A DNA stretch of 63,990 nt, filler included, from Reclinomonas americana ATCC 50394 (GCA_048213135.1; 9 parts of 9 records of this genome joined end to end with filler, not necessarily neighbours in it); one strand, 5' to 3'. Positions 1 to 60,100 are shown, counted from the whole stretch's first letter. Notes: generated by a model not told the origin, from the sequence alone. A program made the numbers and translations.

Positions 1-145
1 CCTCCCTCCCTCCCTCCCTCCCCCCCTCCCTCCCTCCCTCCCTCCCTCTCTCCTTCACAGTCACTCACTCCCTCTTCTTCCCATCTCACCCACCCACCCA
101 CCCACCCACAGCACAACACAATACTCTACTATCCGTGAACGCAAC

Positions 146-1763
146 TGATATCCTCGGCATGCACCAGCGGCTGACGGATCCACTGTGCCAGCATGCGAGA
201 ACCCATGTTGGTCTTGCAGCGATTGAGCAGGCCAAAGAGGCTCATGTGACGATTGCCTGCGCGAGGAGCAGTGAGAACCACGAATGCTGGTGTGCTGACA
301 ACATGTGCCTACCCACCATCGCCGGGGCTGGGGAACAGATTGAGGGCACGAACGGCGGCCGAGTCGAGTCGAACATAGTCCTCCAGCGCGAACCGCTGCA
401 GCTTGAAGGAGCGCATGTTGGATTCGTCGTCCAGCAGCTGAAAACGCCGATGTGAGTCAAGTGAACACAACAAGTCAAAAAGCACACACACATCGCACCT
501 CCAAGTACTTGATCAACGCCGCGAGGGCACTCATCGCCAGCACATTTTGCATCTCATTCGCGCTCCGACGCGGATCGTCGAGCAACTTGCCGAGTGCGCT
601 CTCCGCGTCCTCGGGCTTGAAGAGACCTGCACACGCGAAGGGTGAGACAAGTGCCTTCCCCTCCAACCCCCTCCTCCACACTCAACTCTTCTTCTTCTCG
701 GTGGCCACCACGTCGCACCGCGCCAGCACGTCCTTCACTTTCTTGACGTCGCATGCAGTCGGATCGAAAGCGACCACCACCTCCTTGATGCCGAGTTGCA
801 GCAGGGCACTCTCCAGGTTGGCATACTGGTCGTTCTCCACAAACTCGGCCACTCCGAATCGCCGCTGCCCGAGCAGCGCGTACGCCAGACCGACAGCCTG
901 CGAGCGCGCGCGCACCAAGTCAGCCGCATCCACCTCACCTCCGGCGGGGCGCAAGCATACACAATGAGAACCTTGCGTCCATCCGCAGTGGAGAAGCGCA
1001 CAGCAGCCACCACACCGCTCTCGTGTCCCGCCGCCGCACCCAGTGCCAGTTCCTCGAACTCGCCGAGGTTGCCTGGCGTTCCCTGTGTGTATGTGCACAG
1101 GTGGGCACACCCTCCACACAAACGGCGACAAGGAGACATACGTACCCGCTTGACACACTTCCACTCGCTGGAGCCCGACTCGGCAGCCCACACCTCCACC
1201 TGCGCACAAGTGTCAACAAAGCATGGCCTGGGGTGCTCGTCGTGCGCGACAGACGCAACAGTCATGCCTCTCCGCAACAGCAGATCGGTGACCAGCTGCT
1301 CAAAGAGACGCTGGTTGACGCTGAGCGAGGCCAACCGGAAGGAGCCATTGGAGGCGGAGATTTCGCGCACTCCCGACGTCGTGTTCTGGTACTCGGTGGC
1401 GATCGAGATGGCCTGGTCGCCGTGCACTGTGTAGTACTCCTGTGAAGCAATGAGCACTCGGAGGAGTCAACACAGACAAACGACACACAAAATTCATGTG
1501 TGCCTTGCGATCAAACAGTCGAATGACGTTGGGAGCATCCTGCGCCGCCACCCCACAATGAGCATGTGCAAGGTAGAGAGAAGAAGGAGAGAGCACGCGC
1601 GCACCGGAAGTGTGCGGTAAAACTTGCAGAAAGAGTCCTCTTGTTTGGCACCTGCGCGTAGCACACGTGAGCACTGTACTCTCTTGTGTGTGTGAAGGTA
1701 TCAAAGCACGCAACTCAGTTTGAGTTGCAACGTGGCACCGCCGCTGCTGCTGGCCTCGCTCAT
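146..1763 (-). CDS. MSH2: DNA mismatch repair protein MSH2, 5' part (10 introns visible; continues beyond window start)
   Basis: Spliced exons read MSEASS..SFCKFYRTLP-DAPNVIRLFDRK-EYYTVHGDQA..GTPGNLGEFEE..FVENDQYANLESALLQLGIKE..YVRLDSAAVRALNLFP..SLFGLLNRCKTNMGSRMLAQWIRQPL, all typical MSH2 motifs. Confidence 0.95.
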
Positions 1764-1896
1764 TTGTTTCTCACGCAGCAAAGCAAATGGGACAGTTACC
1801 AGTGGCGCGAACGCTCGCGCGCATTGTCTCTGTCCCTCGACGACATCGCTCATCGCGTGTGCGTGTTTTTGCGTGTGTGTGTTTGGTGGGCTGAAT

Positions 1897-3692
1897 ATGA
1901 AGTGGCCTAGCTTCCTGGGCGTCGATCGCAAGAGCAGGGTGCGCGGCGATGTTCGGTGCACATGTCCTTCTCACTCTCTCTCACACACAAGCACGCGCAC
2001 ACACACAACAGATCTTTGTCGTGTTCATCCTGGTGATTGCCGTGCTCGACTTTGCGTTGTGCGTGTCGGCGTGGACAGCAGCTGGCAGAGTTTCGTGCAC
2101 GCGACATCTCACACACAACTTTTATGTTGTTGCTTTTTTTGTTGTTGTTGTTGCACGACATTGCGCCACACTCTTCTCTCACTTTCCTCTCTCTCTTTGT
2201 TGCAGCTATGGGGCGAATCTGCGAGCGGGCGTCGCTTTTACTTTGTGGCGCTTCCCATGTTGATTTTGTCGTTCCCTGTGTGTGCCTACTTGGTGCTGCA
2301 GTTCAGGCCACGTGAGAGCATGTTTGGTGGAGTTGCGTATACACTTACACATCACTCGCTGGCGTTTTGTGTGTAAGTTAGAGAGAAATGATCGAATTTG
2401 ATCTCTCTCTTGTGTGCAGCTGGTCGGCATGTGCATTTGCTTGTTGTTTGCGCTGTTGGATTTGGGCTTTGTGGCGTCGGATTATGGCGATGATGCGTTC
2501 AAGGCGTTGTCGGTGTTTTGCATTCTGCAGCTCATTCCGGTGGTGCGTTGGATGAGGGACAGGGAGGGAACGGGATCACGAGGAAAGAGAGTAGAAGGAG
2601 AAAGGATGGAAGATAGAGAGAAAAGGGATGACGAGGAGGACGAGGAGAAGAAGAAGAGGAGAATGGGAGGGAACGACACGAGGAGTGTTTGCACTGAGCA
2701 ACATGAAGGCGTTTGTGTGCAGCGAGGGAGAAAGGGGGAGAGAACGAAAGGGCGTGTGGACGTAGCAACACAGATTCAGCAAGGAGTAGAGGAGGAGAGA
2801 ATTGAATGCGAGATAACACGAATGTAGAATGAGAAGAGAAGAGGAACCGCGGCAGCAACACAAGACATGGTTCAATGAGAGAGTCACAGACTGGGAAAGC
2901 GAGCGAAAGTGCGTTTGATGTGTGTTATGCATCGTGGACAGGAGAACACGAGTGCGTAGCTTAGGGAAGGCAGCAGACACGACGAACAGCGAAGAAGGCA
3001 GTCGTATCAACGAGAAGTGCAGACTGAGAAAGCTAGCGAGAGTGTGTTTTGTGGTGTGTGATGCAGCGGGAGAGAAGAGAAGGGGAAGGCAGCAGACAAG
3101 ACGGCGAAAAAGGCAGTCATATCAGGGTGTCTAGAGTGCGTTTGGTGTGTGCGATTCAGCGTGGAAAAGCGAAGTCGAGTGCGTAGCGTAGTGTAACGAA
3201 AGAGGGGAGAACAAAAGGGAGATCAGGGAAGGTTGAGAGCTGCAAATAGAACACAGTCGTGTGCGAAGGAATGCGAGCGTTGGTGTGTTTCTGGTGTGTG
3301 ATGCAACATCGAACGAAGAATATGAGTGCGAAGCCTAGTGCACCGAAGAAGGGTTACAGATGTACAAGGAGGAGAAGGGGAAAGCATCAGACAAGACGAA
3401 CAGCGATGTTGTCAAGCACACAGGGTAAGCGAGCGAGAGTGTGTGCGATTCAGTGATGCTGGTGAAGACGTGTGAAGATCGATGTGACGAGAGAGAAACG
3501 ATGCAGACTTGCGAGGAGAGACTTGAAGCACACACGCAGAGAGCGAGAGTATGTGTTGCTTGTGCTTTATCCATCACTTCTCACTCCCCCGCCTCACACA
3601 GTCGGCTTTCATGGCCTTCCTCTTTGTGTGGAAGACGCCGTACTTGTCGGATGATGCCGACGGCGGACAGCCGCAGCGCGACTATCAACCGA
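1897..3692 (+). CDS. small four-transmembrane protein of unknown family (3' end in gap)
   Basis: ATG at 1897. In-frame exons MKWPSFLGVDRKSR/IFVVFILVIAVLDFALCVSAW/FYFVALPMLILSFPVCAYLVL/LVGMCICLLFALLDLGFV..ALSVFCILQLIPV/SAFMAFLFVWK are bounded by GT-AG; there is a ~1.06 kb intron at 2543-3601. Confidence 0.65.
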
Positions 3693-6800: not shown

Positions 6801-9179
6801 AAAGATGCGCCACCTGGTGGCGATTGTGCGCAAACTTCATGGACAGTTCAGGGTTCGTCATCCGTGGCTCCTGTCACAGTAGCGACATGCATCCTGAGTG
6901 ACAACTGGCACAGTCGGTGGTGCCCATGGCGGCCTTGGGTTCGGAGGTCAAGAAGGAGTCGTCACTCTTTTTGACTGCAGGTTTTTTCCCGCATATGCGC
7001 GTCGCGTGTTATTGTCATGGGGATCACCTCTCATGTTCATCGTGGTACTCATGTTGCAGATACGCCGCGACTCGCCGACCTTGTCAGCAAAGCGGTGGAG
7101 TTCGGATATCTCGAACCCTGCGACGATCCCAACTGCGTGCGCCCTGTCAGTGGTCCGGCCGTGGGAAAGCGCAGACGACCATGTTGCGCCTCTCCCTGCT
7201 CTCGATTACCGCGATCACCGTCATGCTTACACCAATGACCAGACACTGAGGAGGAAAAGATGGCGAAGCTGGTGCAGTATGTGACATCGTGTGCTGACGC
7301 ACAAGGGGTGTGTACAGTCGCCGTTGTGAGTGGTTGTGACGTGACACCAATTTCTCCTTGTATATCTAGCGAGCGCATCTGTCGGCGCTGGGTTCTGCAG
7401 TGGCCGCACAGCAAAGTCTGTTCTTCACGCACGGTACGCTTGCTGTGTTGCTGCTGCATGGGCACATCGAACGGCGTTTCGCTCACACAACTACAGAGTT
7501 TCCTGATTTGAAGTCATTGCGCAAGCGTGCTGTTGAGCTAGGCCTGCTCCAACCATGCGGTGACGCCAACTACGTGCGTCTCGGGGCGCAGGCGATCGTT
7601 GGGAGCTCGGAACAGCCGCCAGCTCGGCCACCAGTCGGTCCCAACTCAGGTTCCGGATCTTCCTCCTCCGCTGTTGCCAAGCAGGCGTCAAAGCCGACTG
7701 CGGCTGTTGTCAACCCAGCGCCATTGTCTGTGCCAGGTTTGAGAGCAGCAGTCGCGGTGTTGTCTACCTGGCACCGTCATTCTTGTTGACACAAGGTCGC
7801 GTGTTTTCCAGGATCGGTGACGGAGAAAATGAGGCGCCTGGTAGAAATTGTGCGCCAGTGTGCAGACAGTGAGGGGGTACGTTGCGCCTTTTGATTGGTG
7901 CGCGGTCTCGTGCAACACAGACTGAGACGCGTTCTTCAACAGCGAGCCAACTGCGCAGCCGTTGGCCAGGCCGTCCACGACGATTCCTCGTTCTTCTACA
8001 ACTGTGGAATCACGAGGTTCGCTGACCTGAAGGAATTGGCCATATCGCTAGGCTACTTGCGAGAAAGCACTTCAGTTCGCAACCACGTCTGTGTGCGAAG
8101 TGCGGCAGACTTTCTGGGCCAGTCCGTGCACGAGGCACCTCAGCCGCCGCCGAGCAGTTGCGTAGAAAATGCACAGCGATGCACTCGTTTGGCATCTATC
8201 TCAATTCGCGTGCATGCAGCAACCACCGCCGCCGCCACCACTGCTGCTGCTGCACCGCCTCGGAAAGTCTTCCAGCAGCAGCAGCAGGCACCACCGGCCA
8301 GTTACGTTGTTTGCGTGAATAAGAAAGATGCACTCGTGATCTCAAGGCGTTCGTATACAGCGACCGCCGCCACCGCTGCTGCTGTGCCGCCCCGGAAGGT
8401 TGAATCGACGCCAGTCGTCAAGCGGGAAGTCTTCCAGCAGCAGCAGGCACCGCCGACGAGTTGCGTTGATTGTGTTAGAAATGTGCTCGTGTGGCATCTA
8501 TCTCAAGTCGCGTGTATGCAGCGACCACCACCGCCGCCACCGCCGCTGCCACTGCACCGCCAAGCAAGGTCGAATCAATGCCAGTCGTCAAGGATGAAGT
8601 CCTCCCGCAACAACCCGCCCAGCAGGCACCACCGGCCAGTTGCGTTGATCTGAATGAGTAAGAAATGCACTCGTGATCTCACGGCGTGTGTATGCAGCGA
8701 CTGCCGTCGAAGCGCCGAAGAAGACCTACTCTATGCAAGTCATCCAGGGGGCAGTCTTCCAGAGACAATTCACCCAGCAGGCACCGCCAACAAGTTGCGT
8801 TGTTGTGTGAACAAGAGATGCCCTCGTGTGGCATCTCAAGTCGTGTGTACATATATGTAGTGACCGCCACCGCCACCGCCACCGCCACCGCCGCTGCGCC
8901 GCCGCCGCCGCCCAAGCACCCCGACTCGATGATCGTCTCGCCACTACCCGCTAGCTATGTGTCACCGACCAGTTGCGTTATTTGCATGAGCAAGAAATGT
9001 ACTTGTATTGTATCCATCTCAAGTCGTGTGTGTTTGCAGTGACCGCCGCCATCGCCGCCACCGCACCTGTCGTCAAGGGACCGGAACAACCCGTCCAGCA
9101 CGCGCCACCGACCAGTTGCGTTGCTTTGTATGATGCACCCGTGTGGCATCGTATCTCAAGTCGTGTGTTTTGCAGCGAC

Positions 9180-13700: not shown

Positions 13701-16700
13701 CGCGCGGCGGGGATCACGCAACGCTTGAATAGCTGCACAAAATCAGTGTACAAGAGCGCAACGGCGCCCCAGAACAAGTGCGGGAACATGATGAGTTTCG
13801 ACGAGTCCATGTCGGCCACCACCGCCTGCAGTGTGCGCAGTGCCTCGAGCGCCATTGCCAGCACTCGCGAGCTCGGATTGGTGAGCGACGACAACACACA
13901 TTCGAGAAGCCAGGTGGTGCCTTCCGCGCCAGCTCCACACGCCAGGGCACGGAACACCTGCATCGATCGCATGCGCACATGCAACCCGCATCGGCCATCG
14001 CATCCGCGGCGCAGAGCTGCAGTGAAATGGGGAGGAGGGAGGCTGAGTGAACACTCGGGGCACGATAACAGATCATCAAGATGCCACGACACCTTCTTGG
14101 CTCCACTCCTCGGCCAACTGGCGATACTGGCTAAAGACTTGCACCAGATTGGTGACAAACGTATGCAGCACTCGCGCGCTGCTGATTGTCGGCGACTCCA
14201 ACGTCACCTGTTGTACAACACGTGCGCGTGAGCACAAAAAACAAGAGGCAGAGATGGCGCAGAACGGCTGACCTCCTCGTAGGTCCACAGAGGCGACAGC
14301 AAGCGATCCTCCATGTACGCCTGGAACACTCGAGCACGCTCGAAGCGCTCAATCTCCTCCAGAGACTCGCCCTGAGCGTCGGCCTCCGCAATGACCAACG
14401 CGTGAACCGCACTCAGGATCAATCGCTTCGCACTCTCAAACACCAACGCCACCGGATGGTCGATGCGCACCACGGAGCACTGCACAAACAAGGAGGTTTG
14501 ACATGACGCCTCATTGATGAATAGTAGCAGACGACGACGCCACGCAACGTGGAGCATGATTGGCAGCCTGGTGCGCAGGTGCTCCTCCGAGCACTCATAC
14601 ACCACTTCGCTGAGCAGGGCAACTGCGATATCGCCAATCAGCAGCGACGACGACGCCGTGACAGACGACTCGGAGTTGGAGGTCGGTGGTGGTGACGCGG
14701 CGGCGGCACTGGCCTCCGCGTGGCTCACACGTGTTGACGTACGACGCTGCATCGCGAGTCACACACACACAACGACGCGGCACGACACGACAACAAAGAA
14801 ACACGGCAGCCAGTACCTTGGGTGACAGAGCGCCAGTTTCGTCGTAGTCTGTGGGCTGATAAAAATCCTCGTACGCCGTGTGCGTATTGAGGTGCTCGAC
14901 TAACGAGTCAATGGTTTGACTCGGCGCTTGCTGGCACATGGCCACGGCCAGACGCTTCATCACGTCGACTGTGGAATGATCGGGAATGCCGGCGGCCACC
15001 GCCTGCTGCAACATGTACGACACGAGGCTTGCCACGTTGTCTGCGTTGCTGACAAATTCCACCATCAGAGAGATGAATTCGACACGATGCGCCTCGCCGT
15101 ATTGCGCAAACATGGAGTAGAACAGTGGGACCAGTTCTACACGCATGCATAACACACACACAGATGAGACGGGAAGGCAAAGCAACGCACTCTGTATGGT
15201 CGCTGCATACCTTTCTCGGTCGAAAAGCCCACCGAAGCGATCCACGGCACGAGGCACGCAAGAAGGCGTCGCTGCTTCTCCGCCACCAAACCCTCCAGTC
15301 GTCGATAAATGTTGACAAACACTTGCGACGCCATTCCCGGGTGCGACAGCGCCAACTCCACCGACAGGCGCTCTTGCGTTGTAAAGTAGCTCTCCGGCGT
15401 GTTGCTGGTGCATGTCACACGAATAGGCGTATTCACTGAGAGAGAGAGAGAGAGACACCGTCAGTGGCACCACCAAGCGAATGAACAGACAAACACCACA
15501 AGTGCACCATCGTTGTTCTCCTTGGCCACAATCGTGTGCAGCACTTGCAGACCACAGATGCGCACCGAGCGTGCCGTGTCGCCCAACATGAGGAGCGCCA
15601 GCACAACAAGCACCCACACATCGACATCCAAGTCCGAGTCACCCAACACACCCACAATCGCTTTCGAGTAGCTGTGGTATCGTAGAAACACGGTCATTGC
15701 ACGGCCCACTGACAAGGGCGAGTAAAAATCCGCCAATACACACACCCTTTGGAGATGCGCGGGTTCGAGCTGAAGCACATGTCCATGCAGCGGTGTGCAA
15801 GATACTTGTTGCTGGTGATCAGGTTGCGCACCCCAGAGACACCCGTGAGACGCAAGTGGTGGAACTGAGAGCACACGGTGTCATCGATCCACAAAATGAT
15901 GCGGTCCAGCTCATCCTGTGCGTCCGCCGAGTCGTGCGGCAGCGACCTACCAGTACAACAGCGATAGGTGAGCAATGGTAGTGAACAGAAAGGGGCACGG
16001 GTTGCAGCAATAGCACGCAACATGCCGCTCATCAGTGCCGCACATGCCGAGCACGCCGCCAAACGGAGACGATCGCATCGCTGCATGAACGACGCGTGAG
16101 CCGCTTGTGCCTCACCGGCGTCCTTGTATTTGCCAATGCGTCGCTCAAACGACCTGCTCTCGCTCAGCACGCGGAGCAAACGAAGAGCCTCAAGTGGACA
16201 ATGTGTACACGCACCTGCCAACATCACGAGCGCATTCGACGCCGTCCTTGCCGAATCCGCTGAGTCGCATCGAAAACTTGAACATGCGGAAGCGATGCTC
16301 GTTGGACAGCAATGTATATCTGCCGAGGGAGGGGTAGGGTGTCAGTGAGATGCAGAAAAGGGACTGCCGGAGAAAAATCACACGCAACCGCTGCGCCGCG
16401 TGAATGGACTCGGCGAGAACGCGACACGCAATGAGCTGCTCGTGAATCAATGGATCCAGCTCCGGCACTGCAGCCATTTTTAAAATCCATTCTCAGTACT
16501 GCGCGGTGAAGTAAGAGAGACATCGTCACGCATGCGCGTACCGTAGTCGGTGACTGACGGTTCCAGGTAATAAACATTGTAGACGAGGTACATGACCACG
16601 TCCTCCATCAGCAGTTCCTTTTCTTGAATCACCGACGGCGGATTGCTTTCCAGCAACAACCTAAAGAGACGTGGCCAACGAGTCAAGGAGTTAACTGTAC

Positions 16701-37588: not shown

Positions 37589-40500
37589 TCACTCTGTGAT
37601 CTCTGTGCCGGGCTCCTTGAAGGTTTCGCTGGCGAGGAAGGCCAGTTCGCGATCGGCGTCGGTGATTAGCGACGGGTGCCGGTACATGTTGTGCACGACC
37701 ATGGCGAATTCGCTCATGTTCAGCGAGGCCGAGAGGGGACCCGATGTGCGCTGGGAATCAACAAAACAGAAGTGCGTGTTAGCATCGCTGTTGTGTATTC
37801 ATCGGTGGTGGTGTGCAGACCTCGAGTGCCGATCGGCGCAGCTTGCGGTAGCGGAACCACAGCCACCAGCCCAAGTAAATGCAGCTTCCGCCTGCGCAAG
37901 TGTGTGAGAGTCGTCTCGCGATCGACAAACAAAACACACCGCTTCAACGCACAGAACAACAGGAACGAGACGACAATGAGTGGGATGTGCTGTTGGCCCA
38001 GGCAGAAGGCTGCGGAGGAAATGAGCGTGAGGCACAAAAGGCGGGCACGCACACTCACACGAGTGCACGAACCAAACCACACAAAGTTGAACACAATGAC
38101 AATGGTGAAGAAGATGATGGAGAGAGTCTTGAGGAAGTGGGGCGTGCACAGCAGGCGTGCACCCTCCAGTTCTGAGCGCGTGATGCGCCGGTAAAAGTTG
38201 TATCTGCATGCGACAGCAAGCGCGGCGAATGAGTCGAGCGAGCGTGACGAACGGTGGCACACTCCCGCAACTTGTCGATCAAGTGCGCAATGTAGAACGA
38301 GACCAAGCCAATGGGCGCCAGCAGTGGTACAAAGAGGCTGCGATTGGCGAGGAGAGATGAGAGGAGGAACAGGAGTTTGGAGCACTGACTACACAAACCT
38401 GAACGCGAAAACAACACAAAAGTTGGTAATGGCCAGCGCATAAAAGTAGTGATACTCGTACTCGTACGGCTGCATGGCCTCACGCATCTCCTTGGGAGAG
38501 ACGGCACTGCGGGTGGATGGGCACAAGTGAGACCTACATGTAACGCTGCAAGCATTCGCGTAAGCATGCACACCTTCTGGCCGTCCAGAAGATCACAATC
38601 GAGTCGTACAGGCGCGTAATGTTGAAGGCGTTGCCGGCAAACATGACTTGCAACATGTAGCTGTGATATCGCAGGGTTGGAGAGAGAGAGAGGCCATCGG
38701 CGGTAAGAGAAACACCACACTGTGTCACGCAACGCAGTGAAAAACAGCGTGTTGTGCTCCGTGTAGATCTGTTGCTCCGTCGCACACGCAGTGTCAGCGC
38801 ACGATAGCAGGGGGCAACTCCCTCCTTCCCACGCCACACCTTGGACATGATGGTTGCAAACGATGCGCCCGACGCCTGCCTCTGGAGCAGCGCGCTGACA
38901 GTAGTGACAGCCAGGCACGGCAGCAAAAAGGTGCTGAGCAACATGAAAATGCAGATGCGCACAAAGCTGGAGGCTTGCCGATACGTTCGCGAGATGGGCA
39001 ACTCGAACCGCGACTGCAGCAGCATCGTGTGAGGGCTCACCCTCACGCACAATACTCTCTTCGACAGACAAACCAGGAAAATGATGAGCGGCGGAATGGC
39101 CACATTGATCTGTCACACGGAAGTGATGAGGACGCAACCACCACATTCACATACACAAGCTCGCACACACACACACACACACACACCAGCAGAATCAAGA
39201 GTGTCGGAATTTCAGCAGTGACGAGACCCGCGAGGTAGGCTGGTCGACAGAGGTCAGCAGCGATTTCAAAATGTCGTGCGTGTCCACACAGTGACAATCA
39301 GAAAAACGCAACGACTGAACACGAGTGCATTCTTGACGGCCTGACCAAGCACGGCCTCGGCGGTTTCGCCATTCAGTGTTGTCAGAATGGCCAGCGGTGA
39401 CGACAAGAAGATGACGAGGAATGCGAACAGGATGCGCCAGAATGTCATCTGCACGGCCGGGTCAGCGAAACATCATGAAATCGCACATGCGCGTACGCAA
39501 CAGCAACGTAGCGACGCCAGCGTGGGACGTGCATGTTGACCCACTCGATTTCGTCGGACCTCATCGCCTTGGACAGCCGCCACGGGGATTTGGACTGAGA
39601 GCGCAGTGAGCGCCTATTGCCTGCCCTGTCCGCGATGACGAGAGAGCAGCAAATCAAACCTTGATCGCCGCATACACCAACTGCGTGTCGTCAAAGGTGA
39701 CAAAGGCGCGACCGCAGCACACGTCGGAAATATTGGTACGATCGGTGAGCATTTTGCGTGCCGTGGCGAGACGCTGCTCGTCGACCTCGAGCTTGGTCTT
39801 GGCTTGCGTGTGCCACAGATCATCCCTGGTTCGCACATTGAAATGTCGTGAGCCTCAAGCCATACGATATCTTGCTCTGGTTCCTAGTCGCAACTTTCTG
39901 CCGCACTTGCAGCAGCAGCAGCAGTGCCACGAGAAGCGCGCGAGATGTTCACGGTCGTCGGCCTCCACCAAACGCAACACACACGCCCGCTCCAGCTCCT
40001 CCCTATCCTTCTCCACATTCTCCAGCGAGCGCAAGTACCAACGAAGATCCGGAATCACCTGTCGTCCACATTCAACACCAAGAGAGTGACATACAGTCCA
40101 TCACACACGAGCGAAAAACCTCCAAGTGCAAGAGGCGGTGCGCTCCAAAAATGCGTCCAAAGTACTCCGACACTCGCCGGTGCACGGCGGCCACGGGCTC
40201 TCGCGGTAATCCCTCAACAAGCACCGTGCGTCGCGCCACGATACCCTCGTGATCCCGGGTCAGCCGCAGCATATGCAGCAGATTCTGCGGCAGCATGTGG
40301 AACACATCCATCTTGTACAGTGCAAGGGCTGTAAACAGCACGCCGAGCACCATGGAGGCCCACAAGCGGTCGGTCTGCAGCGCTGCGTGTGGCGAAGAAG
40401 ATTGAATGGGAGACGGAGGTGAGAGGAGAAAACTTTGTAGAAAACCAACCTTGCACATTCTCCACCGTCGTAATCAGAAACGCAAACTGGGTGTGACCAT

Positions 40501-41200: not shown

Positions 41201-44200
41201 ATGGCACCCTCCATGTTGTTGCTCGGTCCCGATGGCGTCGGCAAGAGCGTATTCATGCGTCAACTGAACCACCAGTTGTGGCAAGTGATGGAGGAGAGCG
41301 GCGTGTTCCCGCTTCTCGTCGATCTGCCAACGCTGCGTGATCCGGTGCACCATCTCGTGTCGGAGTCTCTTGATCGCCTGATGCAGAGGTGCATTTCACG
41401 CCACCATTCCTCCCTTTTCTCTCTCGCACGCCACTCATCATCATCGCTTGATAATGTGCAGCGCTGGTCTGGAGATCACCGAGGATGAGATTGCAGAGAT
41501 GCGCGACACCATGGCCGTGGCATTCATGCTGGACGGCTACGAGGAGTTGGGACTCGACGCCAATCTCGCCGAGTCGAACAATGTTGCGCTCCACATTCGT
41601 GTTGCGCGTTCAGTGCCACAAGTCGCTGCTCACGCGCTTCTGCCGCAGCTCTTCACGTGGAAGCACTCGCGTATCATCACCACCTGCTCGGCGTCGCTGG
41701 CCGATCGCGAATCGATTGGTGATCATCGTCACCTGTTTGTACCGAGCGGCCGTGTGGATACGCTGGTGGAGCGACACGTGCTGCCGTTTGATGACGAGCA
41801 AGTGCGGCAGTACCTGGACAGGTGGCTGGCCGAGACCGGGGCGCGTGATGCGCGAAGGTCATCTTCGTCGGGCCTCACACCGCTGTCGGCCAGCAATGCG
41901 GCGACGCCCTCCAGCGGTGCTGCTGCTGGTGGTTCAGCAGCGACGACTGCACTCTCTGTGGGGATGCCGCTGTACATGGAGGCACTCGATCATTTGTCGG
42001 GGCTGGCTGAACTGTTCCGCTTGCCACTGTACGGGCGCATGCTGGCGGAGGTGCTGCCGGACGTGATGAATGTCCTCGCGGAGAGGCCGGTGGTTGAGCA
42101 AATGGTCAAGCCCAAGGTACGCGCCGCTCTTAGCATCACGGTTGGTGTCGTACGCGCGCACTGACTCGGGAGCAGGATGTGATCGAGGCCTACGTAGCAC
42201 GGTGGATTGGCAAGGAAATTCAGTGGCTCGACGACACCGAGGGCGCCACAGCACCGATCCCCAGCTACGAGCGCGTCTATAAGTTCTGCCAGTCGCTGGC
42301 GTCGGAGATGCACAAGGTACGACTCACGCACCTGCTGTGTGTAACTCGCACATCATCCTCACTCTCTTCCCTTGTTCCCTGCGCAGCGCAATGTCACCAC
42401 TGTGCACTTTGACTCGCAACAAGAACGCGTGTATGTGGAGACGGCGTTGGGGCCGCTGGAGACTGGCGTGTTTGCTCCCGAGATCTGGGGCCGCTTCTTC
42501 TCCGAGAGTGACGATATGTTGCGCATGGTGCGCGAATGCTCGCCAATCGCCTCGCCACCGGGGCGTCGGCAGTTCCGTTTCCGCCACTTGTCTCTGCTGG
42601 AGCACTTCCTGGCGTCGCATGTGTACGATTTGGCGCAGTTGACCATGGAGTCGCTGACCATCGAGTATGTGGTTCAGGTCTACTTGCTTGTCGTGCTATG
42701 GGATCCGTGACCCTTCCTTTACTTATTTTTGTGTTGCTCCGTAGCATCCGCTCAACACAATTCTCATCACCAAGCGTCATTCGCTGCTGGATCGCATCGT
42801 GGACGGCGTGTTGCAGAATCGCAAAGTACAGCGTCGTTTGTGGCACATTGTTCGCATGTCTCGGACGAACGACGATGTCTTGATTGCGGCCGCCAACTGG
42901 TGCGTGTGTGTGTTTGTGTGTGTGCCTCTCTCCTCTGTGTCGCCCACCAACACGTCTCCGTGCGCTGCAGCATCACTCTGCTCGCACGCGCCGGTGTGCC
43001 CTTCCGCACGGATCTTGACACGATTCGCGTGCGAGGCGCGGACCTGTCGGGTGCCAACATGGATGGTGCATCGATTACGGCAGCTGACCTGCGCGGTTGC
43101 GGCATGGAGGGATCGTGGATGTGCAATGCCGACTTTTACGCCTCCGACATGGACAACTCGCAGTTTTATCTGCGCCCGCACATTGCTGTCGAATCCGAAG
43201 TCGTGGAGCAGGTGTGTTTGTGCGCAGTTTCCTGTGTGCGATGCCACGCTCAATCTCCTTTGCATTCCCCAGCTGGCTACATCACCCGATGGACGGCTGG
43301 TGGCCGAGGCCAATGCCCTCAGTGACCATGTCACCATTTGGTCGGTGGAGACCGGGCAGCAAGTGGTCGAGGTAGGGATTGATTCCACTATTTCCCCCTC
43401 GTCTGCAACTGTGCATTGACTGGTTTGTTGACACAGCTGCGATCACATACGGAGCGCATCACCAGTGTGTGCTTCTCACCGTGCGGCAAGATGGTGGGCA
43501 CAGCCAGTCGCGACTTGTCCGTCAAAGTGTGGGAGGTGCCGAGTGGAAAGTTTCGTGACTTGTGGCGTGTCGCCCGCCTGTTGTTCGTGCTTCACCCCAT
43601 TAATTTTTTCTCCGTGCATAGATGCCTGTACACGTGGCCGCACGAGAGATCGGTAACCACGATTGCGTTCCTACCGACAGCCGATGCGTGTGTGGTGTCC
43701 GGGTGCTCCGACGGCAAACTGCGAGTGTGGGACATGTCGCTGGCCGGCCTCTGTGTGCACGAGTTGGACAGCAACATGGTGGACGTGACCGACATTGCGG
43801 TGGGACCGTCGCCAGCCGGCACGTTGGTGGCCACCTCGAGCAGCGATCGCAACGTCGTGGTGTGGAACGCCAGTCGCGAGTGGGAGATTCTCGCCACCAT
43901 TCCGGCTCACGAGTTGGCCGTCAATGCCGTGTGCTTTGTGGGGGTGTGTGCACGCAAACGCATTGCTGCAAAAATCACTTGTTCGCGGATCGCTAATGTG
44001 CTTTCGTGCTCCACCATGCAGCGCTACTTGGTGACGGCATCGGACGACAAGACCATGATGGTGTGGGACACGTTCACGGAGGATTTCGACTGCGTGTGTG
44101 CGCTGGCGACGCCGCAGAGCCCTGTGCTGCGGCTGGCGGCTGTCTCCACGTCGGTGCTGATCTCGCGCGAGGAATCCGGCACTGTGCGGCTATGGGATCC

Positions 44201-46018: not shown

Positions 46019-48840
46019 ATGCTATTCGCCAGCAGAGCACACGCTCTGCTGATCGCCCACCATGCAACACGCAACAGCAGTCGCACACTGTTCACGGTGG
46101 ATCTCACACACAACCTCGCATGCACACACACACAACGAAACTCCGCTCACATCTCTCCTTTCTGTTGTGCACATGCAGCGGAGTCCGCATCGCCCTCCAG
46201 TGGCCACCATGGGCGTCCTCTTGCAGCAGCGATCGTTGATGCCGATGCGCGCCATGCCTCCGAGTGAGAAGATCGACAAGGAGATGTCGACGAGTGAGCT
46301 GGTGGACAAGCTGCGTGGGTTTCTGTGGCCCGAACGCTCCGATCTGCGTGTGCGTGTGCTGGCGGCACTCGGCTTGCTGGTTGTCTCCAAGGTGCGTTTT
46401 TTAATGTTGCTCTCTCTGTGGATGCGAGGGAAGGGGATCGTCAAGTATGCAATCGCAGGGTGCCAACGTGGCGACTCCGTTCTTCATGAAGTACGCGGTG
46501 GACGAGCTGTCTACGAACACAGACACTGTGGTTGCACTGGCGGCGTCGCCCATTGCGTTGATCGTCGGCTGTTGCGTGACGCGACAAGGCAAGACACGCT
46601 CACTCTCGTTTCGCCCTCACTCACTCTGTGCGCGTGCAGATGGCGCGGCTCGCTCACTGGCCTCGCTGACCAACGAGGCGCGTAATGCGGTGTACGGCAA
46701 GGTGGCACAGGCCTCGATTCGCAGCATGGCCGATCGCGTGTTTGCGCACCTGCATGCGCTGGATCTCGGCTTCCACCACAATCGCCAGACGGGCGCTCTG
46801 GCGCGGGTGATTGATCGCGGAACGCGCGGCATCAACTTTGTGCTGCAGGCGCTCGTGTTCAACATTGCCCCGACGATTCTGGAGATTGCACTCGTGTGCA
46901 CGATCTTGGTGCGTTGCGAGCGAGGGTGCAGTGCCGAGGTCGCCGGAGACTCATCCGTGCATTCGTGCACAGGGACTGAAACTTGGTCCGCTGTACGCTG
47001 CCACCGCTCTCGGTACAGTCGCGGCCTACACGGCATTCACGCTAGCGGTGACGCAGTGGCGGTTCGTGTGGGGGCAAGACGGAAGATGGTGCATGTTTGC
47101 TGCTCACCCCACTCCGCAGGACCAAATTCCGCCTGCAAATGAACGACATGGACAACAAGAGCTCTGCCAAGGCCATCGACTCGCTCATCAACTACGAAAC
47201 CGTGAAGGTGAGGCAGTGTGTGCTCCCTGTGCATCTTCCAGCTCGCCTCCCAAACATGCTCATTTTCGTGCACGCAGTACTTTGGCAAGGAGTCGCACGA
47301 GATCAAGCAGTACGACCGCTACCTGCAGGGCTACGAGGCTGCATCGCTAAAGACGGTCACCAGCCTGTCGCTGCTGAACTTTGGACAGAGTGCAATCTTT
47401 TCTGTCGCCCTCACGGCTCTGATGGTCATGGCGGCCACTGGCGTGCGCTCGGGTGCGTCTCGATGCGTATAGAGTACCGTATGCGCACGTTTTCCTCACT
47501 ATTGACGTGCAGGCACGATGAGTGTCGGCGACGTGGTGATGGTGAATGGTTTGCTGTTCCAGCTCTCCATTCCACTCAACTTTCTCGGCTCCGTGTACCG
47601 CGAAGTGAAGCAGTCGGCGGTGGACATGCAAAACATGTTTGCGCTGCTGAAAGTGGAGCCCTCTGTCAAGGCAAGTCGAGGCCACGCAAAGGAATAGCAG
47701 AGGGCATTCACTTATGTGTTGTTTTCGCACTGCAGGATCGTGTCGACGCCGCCAAACTGGAGTTTCGTCGCGGTGACATTGAGTTCGAGGACGTGCACTT
47801 TGGCTACGACGCGAATCGCTCGATCCTCAACGGCCTCTCCTTCAAGGTGCCAGCCGGCCAGACATTTGCCTTTGTGGGCGCCAGTGGCAGCGGGTTTGTG
47901 AAAGTGTGTGTGCAGCCAACTCACTTGTGTGTGTGTGCTGATCGCTGCTGTTTTCGGCAGCAAATCCACCATTCTCAAGCTCCTCTTCCGCTTCATGCAA
48001 CCCGACAAGGGACGCATCCTGGTCGACGGGCAGGATATCTCACAAGTGTCGGTGGCCAGCCTGCGCTCCCACATTGGTGTGATTCCGCAGGACACGATCT
48101 TGTTCAACGACACTGTGCGCTACAACATTGCCTACGGGTCGCCTAAGGATCCGGTGCGCTGAACAACAACGTCAACAGCTTCCTGCACGTGCACTCTTCT
48201 TCTCATCACACGCACACACATAGGCGCAAGTCACAGACATGGAGGTCGAGGATGCGGCTCGGGCGGCGCGCATTCATGACACTGTGTTGAAGTTGCCGAA
48301 GGGGTATCAGTCGGTGGTGGGCGAGCGCGGTGTCAAGTTGTCGGGCGGCGAGAAGCAGCGGGTGGCGATTGCGCGCACCGTTGCGTCTCTCCTCATTGTT
48401 TCATGTCCCTTGGTGTCGCGTGCTGTGAACTCAACAATGGAGTTGGTGACCCGACAGATTCTGAAGCGACCGCAAATCCTGCTGTGCGACGAGGCCACCT
48501 CGTCGCTGGACTCGCACACGGAGCGTGACATTATGCACTCGTTGGCCGAGTTGCGACGCGACTCCACGGGCATTTTCATCGCCCACCGACTGTCGACAGT
48601 GATGGACTGCGACTGCATTCTGGTGCTGGAGAACGGCAGAGTGGTCGAGTCGGGCACGCACTCGGAGCTGCTGGTGCAGGGCGGTCGGTACGCGCAAATG
48701 TGGTACAAGCAGTTGCTGGCCGACGACGAGGAGGAGGCCAAGAGGTGAGTGCGCTCGAAATGGGACAAGGCTGGCTCACATGGTGTCCTCACTCGATGAT
48801 GCATTCGTACGGCAGGCCAGAGGCAGCAGTGAGCAAATGA
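46019..48840 (+). CDS. ABCB7: mitochondrial ABC transporter ABCB7/ATM1 (12 introns)
   Basis: Arg-rich presequence, [95 protein letters not shown]. Confidence 0.96.
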
Positions 48841-53800: not shown

Positions 53801-55116
53801 TGGACGGGGTGAGGTGCGCCGATGGGAGATGAGGTCGTCGGCCACAACAAACACTCACCATCAGCACCAGCATGGAGCCCTTGATGAGAGTCGCAATGGA
53901 AATCGTCGCTGCAATCACCACAGCGCCGAAGATGACAGTGGCCGTGAAGACCACCCAGAAACCGTACAGCACGAAGGATGGACTGCACGCCAGTCAGTCA
54001 GCGGAGCACAACGTCGAAGAAGAGCATTGGTGCGCAACTTGAGGCCAATCAGCTCGCCCCACGCCTTGGAACCGGCGAGTGAGTAGCTGATGAGAATGGA
54101 AATACTGCCAGCAGGCGGAGCAGTGAGACAGCGGCTGGAAGAGAGAGAGAGCGGGGGGAGGGCACACGCGCAAGCGAACGAAACAAGTGCAACACCACCG
54201 ACGCATCAAAGATCTTTTGCGCCGTGGGGCCCAGAAAGATCTTGCCCATCGCGTGCAGATCGGGACCCTTGCTGAGGAAGCGCGGTGTCTTCTTGCCCTT
54301 GTTGGCCTCGCCTGCAAGCAGACGTTGGCCTCCATCCACGAGAAACAAGAGGATCAGGGACGCAAGAGCAAACCATGCGGATTCAGCACAATCGTGGCCG
54401 AGTCGACGCTTGCTCCTTCTGGTGGATCGTTGTGCTGTGTAGCCATGCATGTGAGAAGAGAGGGAGGAGAAGAGTGAATGGAGAGTGCGATGAATCCACC
54501 TCGTTGTCTCGCTGCTGTTCTCTCCTCATCTCCGTGATCTGTGTGCACTGCAGCAACTCGACCATGTACAATGCCGTCAGCACCTGCGCAAACACACGCA
54601 CTGAGCACACAGAAGGGCGACTGGTGCGAGGTGACACATTCCGCCCGCGAACCTGCATCACTACACACACAGAGAAGTTGGTGATGAAAGGCCATGGCCC
54701 AGAGGAACCCAGTTTCACAGGCAGAGCGAGAATGCCAGTGCCTGTATGCACACACACACAATGAGTGTGTGAGAGTGCGAGGCAACGCATTTCATCTTCT
54801 TCTCTCTCTCGCTCACCCAACACTGTGGCCACTGTGGCAAAGAAGGCGGCCACAAAGGTGAACCACGACGCCGGCTTATTACCGAGCTGACGGGTCTGTC
54901 TTGCGTGTGAGAGGCAGAAGGAGAGCAAAGAGAGAGAGAGAGCAAGGACATGGCGCGCGCAACTGGGTCGTAAGGTGGCCCCGACTCTGCACTGGCGCTC
55001 AGTGTGGTCACCGGTGAGGAGCTTAGTGAGGAGGCTGTGGAGTCGGAGAGCACCGCCGTGGCACCGTTGCCGCTGCCCACAGAGAGCGGCCAGGTGCTGG
55101 CGCTGCCTCCACTCAT
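53801..55116 (-). CDS. amino acid transporter (APC/AAAP-like), 5' part
   Basis: AFFATVATVLG/TGILALPVKLGSSG.., YMVELLQ, DLHAMGKIFLG..IFDASVVLH..SILISYS, FHCDSHQGL-region hydrophobic exon VIAATISIATLIKGSMLVLM. Confidence 0.8.
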
Positions 55117-55356: not shown

Positions 55357-56480
55357 TCATGAACTCTCCTGACTCTGGAGCGACTGCGCTAGCTGCTGCT
55401 CCTGTTGCTTGAGTCGCTTGACTCGTCGTTGTGAGCTGCTCAGTGCGTTCAATTCGTCCCGCATCTGCCGCAGCTCACTCTCACGATGCCGTCGCTCCTG
55501 CGCCTCCTGTGCTCGCGACACCGTTGAGTGGAGCGAAGGGAAAGCGAGCAGCCAACACTGCCTGCATACCTCATCCAATCGCCTCTGCTCCAGCAGCTCC
55601 GACCTCGCCACATCCATGGTCTTCTCCGTCTCCACGCGCTCGGCGTCGTCGGTGATGCCAAACAATCGCGCAACATCCAGTTTCGCCTGCACATCCATGT
55701 CGAGCTCTCGCAAGTCGTCCATAATGGCCTGTGCGTGCGTGCGTGAGCGACAGGGATCAGTGAATGGAAGCAAGCAACGTGCACACGCGCACCTCCAATG
55801 GATCGGGACCCTGCGAGTGCAACTGCGAGCGAATGGCGATCAAGTCGGTGGCCGACGAGGCCAACGTGCGCGTGCGATCAAACGTGCGCCACAGCAGCGG
55901 ATCTTCCGGCACTCCACCACCCGTGCCGGGACTCAGCAGACTGCCGCTGCTGGCTGCACGGCGTGTGAGACAACAACATTACAGCACGACGAAGATAAGA
56001 CAAACGCCACTCACCCGCCAGCTGCGAAATCGACATGGGCGTGGTCGGCGTACGCGGCGCCGCCGGTGTCTGCACACCACCACCACGTGAGCAACACATA
56101 CGCAATCACACAAGAGAGCGATCAGCACCTGCGCAGATGACGGCGACGCATCCACGCCCGGCGCCATGTGCACCGTCTTGCTCTGTACGCGCGCGCACAC
56201 ACACACATATAAGATCGTGAGAGACCGCTACTCTATGCCAAGACGCACGAAATCGCACTCAACACCACTCGGCGATCCAAGCACACCACTGCTCGCCTTG
56301 CGACGCGACGGCGAGCTCGGCTCGTCCTGCCCACCACTGCCAGCGGCGGTGAGCGACGAGGCCGCGGCGACCATAAAGTGTCGATTGAAGGGCGATCGCC
56401 GGATCTCCTCCTCCCACTCACTGGCATCCGCTCCCGGCTCCACAGGCGTCTTGCCGTAGCGATCTTTCTGTGCCCCGCCG

Positions 56481-56841: not shown

Positions 56842-57112
56842 TGATCGCGTGAGTGAGAGATGACGTCAACGACGATTGTCTTCGTTTGTCACAGGGGCAC
56901 TTTTTCACCGCGTTTCGGAGGTGTCCCCCAACCCTCACCAGGTCTCGCAACCTGTGCACGTCCGTTGCACAGGCGCCCACCATTCAAAAGTCCCATCCCC
57001 CAAAAAATTTTCTCTCGCGATCCCCCGTACCCCAGTGGGTAAAAAAAGGGGTGTCCCCGTGTCCCCCACTTGTTGCGTTCCCCCTTGTCACTCGGCCTCA
57101 CTCTCACACAAC

Positions 57113-60100
57113 ATGAGCAATGTGAAGGTCTGCTTCTCGGTCTCGTCTCACTCTACCTTCTGCTTCTCACTGNNNNNNNNNNNNNNNNNNNNNNNNNNNN
57201 NNNNNNNNNNNNNNNNTTAATTAATTAANNNNNNNNNNNNNNNNNNNNNNNNNNNNNNNNNNNNNNNNNNNNGCTCATCTGCTCACATTGTTCTTCTGTT
57301 GTTGTGCAGTGTATGATCGTCTGTTGGAGCGTGTGTTGGTGGCTGGCAATCGGCCAGAGACACTGCTCACGCTCTTTGAGTTTATTCGCACACACATGAC
57401 CAAGGTTCGACTTGTCGTCGTCGTCGTCGCTGTTTCACACACTCTCACTCACTCACCCTCGACCCTTGCTTGGCCTGTTGCTCCCTCCCTCTTCTCTTCC
57501 ATTCTTCGTGGTGTCTCGATGTTCGTCTGTTTTCCCGTGGTGTAGCCTCCGCCGAGTGTAGAGATTCTGTGGCGCATCGATCAGGCGGCGCAGCAACTGC
57601 AGGCCGAGTACCCACAAAGCTCCTCATCGCGCCTCTCCAAGGTACGGGTCAGAGTCGCGTTCTCCCTCTCTCGTTGCCACTCACTGTTGCACTCTGTCCA
57701 GGTGCTGAGCCACGTTCGACAGCTGGTGGTGCGCTCGCTCGAGTCGTCCAACTTTCAGGCCTCCTCCTCGTCGTCTGCCTTGTCGTCGTCGTCGGCGCCG
57801 ACGTCGGCTGCGGCCAGCTCGGTGAGTGCCTCCGCCACTGCGGCAGCCGGAGCATCATCGGCAACAACGGTACCTGCGACGGCGTCTGCGGGGTTTTCGT
57901 CTGGTGGCGGTGTGCTGAGCAGTCCAATGCCTGGTGCCACGCCGGTGAGCGTTCGAGCGCGTGTTTACGTTTGTCTCGTGTTCATTTTCGCTGAGTCGTT
58001 CGTCACTGTGCACAGGCTTCCTCCTTTGCCACAGGTTCTGCCGCCGCCGTGCCCACCGGCACTGCCGGCAGTATCATGTCGGCGGCCACCGCCGTCGCCT
58101 CGTCGTATGGCAACGGTGGCTCCTCCGGTAGTTGCGTCAAACTCGAAATGACGCGCGCTGCCTGGAAAAAACCTCACTCTTGGTACACGCCACGCAGCCG
58201 TGCCGTCGCCATCGCACGCTAGTGCACCGCACTCGGTGCTGCAACGTGTACCCAGTGGAGGCAACAGCAGCTTCGCCAATGTTGCGTTTGTGTATGTCCG
58301 TGTGTCTCGAGTCTGGCAGCTCCTAACCGAGAATGGCAGCACGGTGTGGGCACGAATGGACTGTCGGGCGAGGTGCGACCATTGGGTACGTTCGGCCCGT
58401 CGTCAGCAGCTGCTCTGGAAGGTTGATTTCTCTCTCTCGCTCAGTATATTGCTTCTTCATTGTTGGCTCACTCTCTTCTCGCTGCAGACCGCGATGCATT
58501 CGTGGCCAATTTGTGGCGTCGCAACGTAGGGCGACTTATCGGTGTGTGTGTGTGTTTCTCCCGATGTGGTCGCATGTGTGTGCTCACTGGCCTTCACAGA
58601 CACGGTGTCATTGCAAAATTATCTCATTTTTGGCGGTCAATTCAAGAGAAAAGTCAGCTCGCTTCGTGGCCCGCGGTCGTACGGCACGTGTTCCTGTGTT
58701 TCCTGAGAGAGATAGAGAGAAGCGAGGAGAATTCTGACGGACTTGCGCGCAGAATTCGACTTTTCCAACTCGCTGGAGTTGCTGGATGTGCAACACATGC
58801 GAACACGCATCGAGGCCGTGCTCGACGATAAGAAAACGTTTGTTCCGCATTCCTTTCCGCATGTGTCGCTTTTGTTGAATGTTCTCATTCTCCATTCGTG
58901 CTGCAGTGAGACCCCACCACCTCCACCCATCACGGATTACATTCGCGATTGGCGGTCCTACCGTGAGCAAGACCCGCTGGTCATGTCGCTGGCTGAACGG
59001 CGCAAGGTCTCTTTGGTCGTCTACTAGCGCCTAAGCGCACCCTCACGCACTGTGCTCATCGCCTCCTTCTTACACAGGTTTTTGAGATGATGTGCTGGCG
59101 TGCGAATGACGAGCGGTCGGCGGTCGTGAGAGCCAAGGCCACGCAAATCATGGTCAAGGTACGCCAGACGACAGCGAGTCCAACTTGATTGGCGGTTGCT
59201 CAGCACGTGCTCGTCGCAGATGTTTATGGATGCGTATGTGCGCGGAACAGCGGCGGCCGTGCGTCGCATGCTGCTCATGTACCGACGACTACTGGAGTCG
59301 CCGTCGGTCAGCGTGCGAGTCAGCGCTTTCACGCTGCTCCTCAACGTGGGTATCCACGCACACTGTCTGCGACGAGTTCCTGCCTCTGGTGTTTTGTCGA
59401 GTTGCGGAGTAGACGCACGCTCTCCTTTGCCGAGTGCGCCGTGAATCTTATCTCGCACGTCGTCGTACACGTAGGACTCTCAGACGGTGGCCCCTCCATG
59501 TCGTCGTTCCAATACTCGGATCGAGCTGTGCTCACGGATTTGTTCGAGAAATTTGTCGAGATGTTTACGGTGTTGTGCGAGAAGGACGAGAGCGAAGAGG
59601 ATGTGTGGGGCGCCGCGTACAAGGTGCTCAGCTTTTTCGCCGTGCGTGATGGCGAGTTGTCATTACGACAGTTGCGTCCGTTGCCCGACCCGCCTCGTTT
59701 GCGACTTCGGATCCGGCTCATTTACTCGCATTTTCCGCGCGCGCATCACAGCGTTCTCTGTCTCGACCTGCGCTCGGTGGTCTGCTGTTTGCGCACGATT
59801 GGACACCAGGGCGTGGAAGTGCAGCAGACGTTGGTGGCCATTATCTGTAGCATACTATATCCTTCGCGCATTGCCAGCATCGCTCCTTCTTCCTCCTTCT
59901 GCCATTGCTTCCTTGACTGCTGCTGCTTCGTCGGTGCACCTATGCTCGTAACTCGCAGCTCGATGTGGATCTCGTGAGCGAACTGGGCGGCATTCGCACG
60001 TTCCTACGACTATACCGATCGGTGGAGTCGCTCACAGCGCAGGAAAACCTGTTCAACATCATCTTCGACTACATTGTGATCTGCCTTCAGCGATCGGGCA

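Follow-up and report, generated by a model that had tools for sequence, protein, structure and literature searches.

The window analysed here, a stretch of 63,990 nucleotides from Reclinomonas americana ATCC 50394 (GCA_048213135.1), consists of nine pieces whose joints are identical linkers of 44 N, TTAATTAATTAA and 44 N, in which TTAATTAATTAA supplies stops in all frames; the window is thus a series of contigs strung together, whose joints may interrupt genes. Its eukaryotic DNA has a G+C content of about 57% and numerous short introns. Pfam matches on open reading frames identified genes for MSH2, a FRY-like protein, DHX16, a pentapeptide-repeat/WD40 protein and ABCB7 (Table 1), and our subject is the 5' splice sites (donors) in and beyond them. 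A first-pass annotation of the window had claimed that, besides ordinary donors, many introns begin with GTTGCGT or GTTGAGT, that is, with one extra T, and that these sites tend to follow exons ending in a base other than G. We report that extra-T donors are a second, common class of 5' splice site, accounting for about 25% of introns. Positions are counted from the cut, -1 being the last exon base and +1 the first intron base.

Introns supported by homologues

ABCB7, DHX16 and MSH2 were compared with homologues fetched one exon at a time (10, 8 and 6, respectively, three of those of MSH2 being long enough for the distal part), using a protein-to-genome spliced aligner written for this study that accepts GT or GC donors and AG acceptors. 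This delimited 34 introns with both ends inside the window. Nine introns of ABCB7 were backed by at least 9 of the 10 homologues, and a tenth donor (48154) by all 10, with two alternative acceptors; in DHX16, 15 were backed by at least 6 of the 8 homologues and one more (25103) was poorly resolved; the 6 homologues of MSH2 yielded eight introns and one ambiguous junction. GTTG(C/A)GT starts eight of the 34, two in ABCB7 (46571 and 48380), three in DHX16 (24911, 25103 and 27089) and three in MSH2 (1714, 1259 and 686). At six of these eight the last exon base is A, C or T, as against none of the other 26 (Fisher p=2.1e-5), which all have G at -1; 23 of the latter carry G at +5, two are of other kinds and one is a GC-AG intron. 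Seven non-G extra-T donors had been singled out in these genes by the first-pass annotation: those at 46571 and 48380 recur in every homologue and those at 24911, 1259, 686 and 1714 in the numbers given in Table 1, while homology ends at the seventh, 145. The further statement that some extra-T donors do follow G stands for 27089 and is weak for 25103.

Because the aligner forces GT or GC..AG ends, we also listed all junctions within ±7 nt that keep the frame, whatever their end dinucleotides, and compared the resulting junction peptides with the homologues by score. The N/GT..AG junction was the best, alone or tied, for five of the eight extra-T introns (46571, 48380, 27089, 1714 and 1259). 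At 46571 a one-base slide of the boundary (to TT..GA) is excluded by a conserved GYG tyrosine. A cut one base later (NG/TT...), which requires ends other than GT and AG, was rejected, being contradicted at this same intron. The top rank was shared with slid boundaries of identical peptide at 27089 (one), 1259 (five) and 1714 (two), where the alignment of the homologue P0243 runs gap-free across the junction. As for the remaining three, the junction at 686 ranked third of 59, 2 score points under the best; that at 24911 is the sole GT..AG option within ±7 nt yet ranked 11th of 71, in a poorly conserved region where peptide scoring is undecidable; and the junction at 25103, weakly supported, has a competing donor 3 nt upstream (25100) and is likewise undecidable owing to poor conservation.

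The GC-AG intron, at 47671 in ABCB7, is the one case in the window where a GC donor is well supported; further GC-AG introns, sought in the window as a means of inferring the U1 sequence, turned out to be only alternatives to known GT introns. The ambiguous junction of MSH2 (1440-1503, minus strand) begins either at 1503 with G/GCACAC (64 nt) or at 1488 with T/GTGTGTCGT (49 nt), and the latter is favoured by the comparison of KGHSNY in the homologue P0253 with KAHMNF in the window. If right, 1488 would follow a non-G base yet lack the extra T, and it is absent from the list in the first-pass annotation.

The top homologue of the MSH2 N-terminus (1-1770, minus strand), with 50% identity, is P0243, named as the MSH2 of the jakobid Seculamonas ecuadoriensis, which hints, but no more than hints, at a discobid organism; simple repeats of the (CCCT)n and (CACC)n type occupy positions 1-110, within the presumed intron after donor 145. 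Homologues of DHX16 and ABCB7 reach at most 71% and 57% identity, respectively, and include no close relative; the open reading frame at the N-terminal end of DHX16, used as a query for homologues, gave no matches.

A second class of donors across the window

Outside the conserved genes, donors were assessed with a local score, T, which combines the coding log-odds of 60 nt per side, intron composition, an acceptor model and a mild length prior, and into which no donor position enters. It was computed for each GT or GC on both strands with a frame-compatible AG 40-200 nt downstream (254,637 combinations). Its coding model was trained on earlier gene predictions and its intron and acceptor models on the 34 homology introns, so that for these T is not independent, though still blind to the -1 base. 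A threshold of 5.7 corresponds to the 99th percentile of combinations, and the best score reaches it at 9.7% of GT sites (830/8531), which we take as background.

The simplest use of T involves no gene models and asks what share of each motif's sites reaches the threshold, according to the preceding base. For the ordinary motifs pooled it was 32/71 after G and 20/195 after A, C or T, the latter equal to background; the individual figures, after G and after A, C or T respectively, were 12/23 and 12/81 for GTGCGT, 5/20 and 3/47 for GTGAGT, 10/20 and 2/42 for GTACGY, and 5/8 and 3/25 for GTTCGT. GTTG(C/A)GT, by contrast, was donor-like whatever preceded it (4/9 after G, 25/53 after A, C or T). 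After non-G bases, GTTTCGT (4/11) and GTTGCG(A/C/G) (11/50) also reached the threshold, and the control heptamers GTCGCGT (3/24) and GTGGCGT (4/30) stayed near background.

A de novo set of introns was then assembled as greedy, non-overlapping candidates with a donor model limited to intron positions +3 to +9. This selection got both ends right for 27 of the 34 known introns, from 32 calls within those genes. A gene finder recovered 14/24 known introns exactly when run with no donor model and 19/24 with a self-trained one; in leave-one-gene-out runs it found 23/34 exactly, from 29 predicted. Its accuracy being too weak, its models were kept out of the statistics and the local junction score was used instead. 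With all calls inside the three homology genes removed, 60 de novo introns were left. Seventeen have the form GTT-N-(not G)-G, with G at -1 in two, and 32 carry G at +5, with G at -1 in 22; a non-G exon end therefore accompanies 15/17 extra-T donors as against 10/32 ordinary ones (p=2.1e-4). Selection free of any donor model gave 8/8 against 11/27 (p=0.004).

Both the association with exons not ending in G and the standing of these sites as a mainstream donor class (8/34 homology-supported and 17/60 de novo introns), as the first-pass annotation had it, are thus upheld. Its contention that non-G donors carry the extra T, near-perfect consensus sites apart, describes the three conserved genes well, with 1488 as a possible exception, but proves too strong elsewhere given the ten non-G donors among the 32 ordinary de novo ones, some of which are likely errors since precision is roughly 80%. 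Of the two consensus non-G donors that it named, A/GTGCGT at 60477 scores well (T=16.5) and A/GTGAGT at 20947 does not (T=2.3). All 28 coordinates that it named carry the kind of sequence ascribed to them, on the gene strand given, and most of the extra-T sites are indeed GTTGCGT or GTTGAGT; five depart from this, as GTTGCGC (21132 and 41583), GTTGCGG (38271 and 59401) and GTTGCGA (39894). Among its 26 extra-T sites, 20 reach a T of at least 5.7, five are weak (39894, 52704, 58281, 59401 and 59671) and 145 is locally unscorable.

The motif is also abundant in itself. GTTGCGT occurs 48 times on the two strands, compared with 15.87±3.78 in dinucleotide shuffles, none of 100 of which reached 48, and with 13.6 expected under a second-order Markov model; this 3.5-fold excess is the largest among the donor-like heptamers compared, GGTGCGT being enriched 1.25-fold and GGTGAGT 1.7-fold. 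GTTGAGT is present in 14 copies on both strands. G precedes TTGCGT in 48 of 80 cases, and by manual count the sense strand carries 24 of the 30 GTTGCGT copies in five regions with an assignable gene strand. Six A/GTTGCGT copies at 8.1-9.2 kb, all preceding a branch motif and an acceptor, are not independent, as they are copies of one unit. The gene in question (8100-9250, plus strand) is built of units, each a Pro/Ala-rich exon and an intron of 60-70 nt, and the introns are conserved between units.

Profiles of the two classes were compiled from the homology and de novo introns together (ordinary, n=55; extra-T, n=25). Ordinary donors have G at -1 in 45 cases, G, T or A at +3 in 26, 21 and 8, C at +4 in 33, T at +6 in 32 and T at +8 in 33. 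Extra-T donors show A 7, C 6, G 4 and T 8 at -1, G 21, T 3 and A 0 at +4, C 22 at +5, T 22 at +7, and G 15 and A 6 at +8 (a purine in 21/25), with C at +9 in 12/25, so that their consensus reaches GTTGCGTG(C). Displaced by one base, the extra-T profile is the ordinary one. A second series behaves alike, GTTTCGT (2090, 43550 and 54184, all after non-G) acting as the extra-T counterpart of GTTCGT. Both classes are in fact covered by one heptamer, G-(G/T)-T-N-(C/A)-G-T: cleavage follows the first G where the second base is G, and precedes it where the second base is T.

In other respects the introns of the two classes are alike. Lengths are narrowly distributed (most 57-78 nt, median 67), with medians of 73 nt for extra-T and 67 nt for ordinary introns. 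A branch-site-like CTCA(C/T/A) lies about 10-30 nt upstream of a YAG acceptor in most introns, for example in 46571-46639, 47062-47119 and 25358-25414, and inspection by eye showed it in seven of the eight homology-supported introns of the extra-T class and in the majority of ordinary introns. A CTCA(A/C/T)...YAG module stands 48-130 nt downstream of 25/48 GTTGCGT copies, as against 1670/8532 GT sites overall (19.6%), and rates are comparable for the ordinary donors G/GTGAGT (9/20) and G/GTACGY (10/20). Extra-T introns are U2-type GT-AG introns: their removal restores frame and homology, and the branch motif is common to both classes. U12-type introns have the donor consensus /RTATCCTT and the branch site TCCTTRAC. 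With GTTGCGT donors and a CTCAY branch motif, a minor-class identity was ruled out here. Transposon-derived introns (introners) were ruled out as well: compared by eye, the 34 introns are alike only in their splice signals, and as there is no likeness beyond these, the tandem repeat at 8.1-9.2 kb excepted, extra-T introns are not a repeat family.

Table 1. Introns, donors, genes and joints in the window; a slash marks the cut between exon and intron
Feature	Position	Strand	Donor	Length (nt)	Support or remark
ABCB7 intron, phase 1	46571..46639	+	T/GTTGCGTGAC	69	10/10 homologues; unique best of 73 alternatives
ABCB7 intron, phase 0	48380..48457	+	C/GTTGCGTCTC	78	10/10 homologues; rank 1/72
DHX16 intron, phase 1	24911..24977	+	T/GTTGCGTGCT	67	7/8 homologues; T=22.7
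DHX16 intron, extra-T with -1 G	27089..27155	+	G/GTTGCGTGCT		8/8 homologues; rank 1/73
DHX16 intron	25103..25176	+	G/GTTGCGTAGC		Exact intron in 2/8 homologues; T=22.5
MSH2 intron, phase 1	1652..1714	-	A/GTTGCGTGCT	63	1/6 homologues; rank 1/72
MSH2 intron, phase 0	1200..1259	-	T/GTTGCGTCTG	60	5/6 homologues; rank 1/73
MSH2 intron, phase 1	627..686	-	A/GTTGAGTGTG	60	3/6 homologues, all three long ones; T=31.2
MSH2 donor	139..145	-	A/GTTGCGTTCA		Acceptor past window start; P0243 alignment stops exactly here
ABCB7 intron, ordinary example	46392..46458	+	G/GTGCGT	67	9/10 homologues
ABCB7 intron, GC-AG	47671..47735	+	AAG/GCAAGT		9/10 homologues with GC donors allowed
FRY-like gene intron	21254..21364	-	C/GTTGCGTGTG	111	T=33.3; branch motif present
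FRY-like gene intron	15947..16021	-	T/GTTGCGTGCT	75	T=9.4; branch motif present
FRY-like gene intron	14480..14548	-	C/GTTGCGTGGC	69	T=10.3; de novo set
Intron, gene named OSCA in the first-pass annotation	38661..38733	-	C/GTTGCGTGAC	73	T=15.9; de novo set
Intron, gene named ADF-H in the first-pass annotation	37049..37119	-	T/GTTGCGTACA	71	T=13.1; de novo set
Intron	56183..56263	-	T/GTTGAGTGCG	81	T=23.5
Intron, extra-T form of GTTCGT	2090..2205	+	A/GTTTCGTGCA	116	T=23.2; counted with the putatively shifted class
Intron	54105..54184	-	T/GTTTCGTTCG	80	T=22.1
WD40 gene intron	43550..43621	+	A/GTTTCGTGAC	72	T=16.4
Tandem exon-plus-intron repeats	8157..9121	+	A/GTTGCGT		Six donors (8157, 8460, 8639, 8794, 8972, 9115); sequence read directly
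MutS (MSH2-like) gene	left end of window	-			Pfam
MOR2/PAG1 (FRY-like) gene	~15-21.5 kb	-			Pfam
DEAH helicase (DHX16) gene	~24.6-28.3 kb	+			Pfam
Pentapeptide-repeat/WD40 gene, and ABCB7	42.7-48.7 kb	+			Pfam
Linker blocks	3716-3815, 12457-12556, 22135-22234, 36535-36634, 41048-41147, 53701-53800, 57173-57272, 61716-61815

The FRY-like gene seems to run across the linker at 12457-12556. A relaxed Rfam search of the window (E<=1) returned four weak microRNA-like matches only; in a separate observation, 37062-37238 (minus strand) weakly matches MIR1023, a family of plant microRNAs (36 bits, gathering score 90, E=5e-4); the stretch overlaps a gene with introns, and the match is probably due to chance.

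How extra-T donors may be recognised

The sites exist, are enriched, restore reading frames and homology when used as donors, and are uncoupled from G at -1. An extra-T site, N/GUU-N-(C/A)-G-U and mostly N/GUUGCGUG, may be viewed as G/GU-N-(C/A)-G-U with the first intron G changed to U and cleavage moved one base earlier. In the explanation that we favour, and to which we give an even chance, the 5' end of U1 would pair with UGCGU(G), one base deeper in the intron than usual. Intron G+1 would then face the U1 base (C9) that normally takes exon G-1, and U+2 would face the normal partner of G+1; the cut would be fixed later, after a hand-over from U1, by U6, U5 and Prp8 at the sole available GU. 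Because G+1 would occupy the slot of exon G-1, the last exon base would be free. This is what the data show: the last base is needed in ordinary donors (G in 45/55, and in 26/26 of the homology set) and unconstrained in extra-T donors (G in 4/25), as expected if G+1 replaces the exon G, one of the two possibilities raised by the first-pass annotation. The purine found at +8 in 21/25 extra-T donors would, in the shifted frame, face U2 of U1.

Several observations weigh against a shifted U1 register. Duplex folding of 19 extra-T and nine ordinary donors with the canonical U1 5' end gave -4.3 to -11.4 kcal/mol for the ordinary donors, and -2.5 kcal/mol or weaker for 15 of the 19 extra-T donors (range +0.5 to -6.7), with G+1 paired to C9 in only 3 of the 19; a shifted register therefore needs a changed U1 or help from a protein. 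In favour of the shift, a hypothetical U1 bearing G at position 5 formed duplexes of -4.2 to -9.7 kcal/mol with all 16 GUUGCGU donors, pairing +3..+7 with A7..A3 and so adopting the +1 frame, and G+1 met C9 in 9 of the 19 donors; the sole GC-AG intron (GCAAGT), however, fits the canonical U1 5' end and not this G5 variant. The shifted frame also places -1 opposite U10, where A would be expected, and it is unexplained why A stands there in only 7/25. The class is moreover narrower than a pure shift would make it, with G at +4 in 21/25 and A never, compared with A at +3 in 8/55 ordinary donors: GTTACGT occurs once in the window (near 8300, between tandem-repeat copies of GTTGCGT) although GTACGY is common, and the near-exclusive G at +4 is unexplained. 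Finally, the evidence for all junctions comes from homology, reading frame and the GT-AG rule.

A bulged register would retain the normal U1 frame at G+1 and U+2, with one U (+2 or +3) bulged out and the downstream GCGU paired as +3 to +6. Among human sites the +2/+3 bulge has been validated, at 68 of 201,541 in the part of the survey on which we draw (PMC4856993), and folding with the G5 U1 yields it for the three -1G donors at 25103, 27089 and 16388 (-1 with C9, +1 with C8, U+2 unpaired), in preference to the shift, which counts against the latter at these sites. The downstream pairs of the two models are the same, so the shared consensus and the +8 purine fit both equally. What separates them is the exon end. 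A bulged frame keeps the -1G pair that ordinary donors need, and a bulged helix would need it more, whereas the extra-T class has no preference for it; nor does donor-like support of GTTG(C/A)GT depend on the preceding base. The shift is favoured on these grounds, and we think a bulge unlikely for the class.

A dedicated or co-evolved small nuclear RNA (snRNA), whether an additional U1 isoform or a changed U1 or U6, complementary to GUUGCGU(G), would assign two RNAs to two classes; two U1 isoforms would be needed since the one position that distinguishes the classes holds G in one and U in the other, and no U1 base pairs with both. Such an RNA would account for an extra-T consensus that is longer and sharper than the ordinary one (GTTGCGTG, with G at +8 in 15/25) and for the poor pairing of these donors with canonical U1, and co-evolution of U1 with atypical donors has been reported in Entamoeba and Mastigamoeba (sections of 10.1101/2022.06.08.495308). 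Against it, the same sections describe a standard U1 in Thecamonas and Mamiellales despite a preference for C at +4, and the literature examined offers no precedent for two U1 isoforms as a genome-wide system. No snRNA gene was found in the window, either at Rfam gathering scores or at E<=1. On this evidence a dedicated RNA appears quite improbable.

Recognition might also proceed mainly by means other than U1 pairing, GUUGCGUG being bound by a protein or read later by U6 or U5, in which case the likeness to shifted sites would be incidental. Predicted pairing with canonical U1 is near zero for most extra-T donors, and U1 pairing gives no account of the strict G at +4 or of the failure to favour A at -1. 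It is nonetheless hard to see, with no shared reader, why the extra-T motif should be exactly the ordinary consensus displaced by one base, in the GTTCGT/GTTTCGT series too, and we hold this explanation to have only a slim chance. That the class is an artefact of misplaced junctions, or of a repeat or coding motif rich in GTTGCGT, is very improbable: de novo calls are only about 80% exact on known introns (23/29 cross-validated, 27/32 at the threshold used) and one tandem repeat supplies 6 of the 48 copies, but five of the eight homology-supported junctions are the best among all boundaries, the introns have no common sequence beyond splice signals, GTTGCGT lies on the sense strand in most assignable cases, and a branch motif and acceptor follow it as often as they follow bona fide donors.

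To return to the shifted register, a broader proposition goes with it, namely that the spliceosome here may routinely use two 5' splice-site registers, with the cut uncoupled from the U1 frame, perhaps by way of a G5 U1 or a second U1 isoform; this seems to us plausible without being probable.

Relation to known splice signals and significance

Human 5' splice sites of the GUUAAGU type that are read in a shifted register were reportedly described by Roca and Krainer in 2009, and are said to number a few dozen. The extra-T donors resemble human shifted-register sites in having GU at the cut, U at +3, a consensus displaced into the intron by one base and a dispensable -1G; they differ in that the human sites are rare and of the form GUUAAGU, while those reported here are GUUGCGU, make up about 25% of introns and pair poorly with canonical U1 in folding. 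Shifted and bulged U1 registers have been proven for rare human sites, and all validated non-canonical registers together amount to 1.5% of the 201,541 human sites, in the part of the survey used here (PMC4856993). The same part describes bulged and asymmetric-loop registers in which, as here, an extra nucleotide separates GU from the pairs equivalent to +5G and +6U, and the sequence pattern of its +2/+3 bulge is identical to ours (PMC4856993); the difference is that -1G is not favoured in our sites, against a bulged frame for most of them.

Atypical donors are also on record among protists. According to the sections of 10.1101/2022.06.08.495308 examined, Mastigamoeba prefers GUGCGC, with C at +4, and its U1 reads ACGUAC, with G at position 5. 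Mastigamoeba and Entamoeba thus share with the window an atypical protist donor consensus, and a U1 like that of Mastigamoeba would fit the GUGCGU and GUACGY donors here; on what those sections report, however, each has one transformed consensus in the normal frame, unlike the two frames found here within the same genes. GYGCGY-type donors with C at +4 link the window to Thecamonas trahens and the Mamiellales as well, which have a standard U1, but the extra-T class is not described in the sections of that work examined (10.1101/2022.06.08.495308). For jakobids, the consulted part of one report describes Andalucia godoyi as intron-poor (PMC7050145), which sets it apart from the organism studied here, and in the part seen of a paper on tunicates a shifted register is mentioned merely as a possibility (PMC13326754). 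Our literature search turned up neither a lineage with such sites as a major class nor any account of donor signals in jakobids. The window is far more intron-rich than Mamiellales. Among 80 DHX16 loci in metagenome contigs, GTTGCGT was enriched in none, the top identity being 81% over a very conserved exon; the five that were aligned (L067, L001, L003, L040 and L043) are intron-poor or have GTAAG-type donors.

Non-canonical U1 registers have so far been rare human exceptions, all kinds together making up 1.5% of sites, whereas here a single class accounts for about 25% of introns. If a shifted register is indeed in use, identity of the U1 frame with the cut site would be no universal constraint, and the genome would offer hundreds to thousands of natural test cases of how the cut is fixed by U6, U5 and Prp8 once U1 leaves. 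Gene finders built on a single donor matrix would mis-annotate a large share of the introns of this organism. It would also provide a fresh case for the co-evolution of splice signals and snRNAs.

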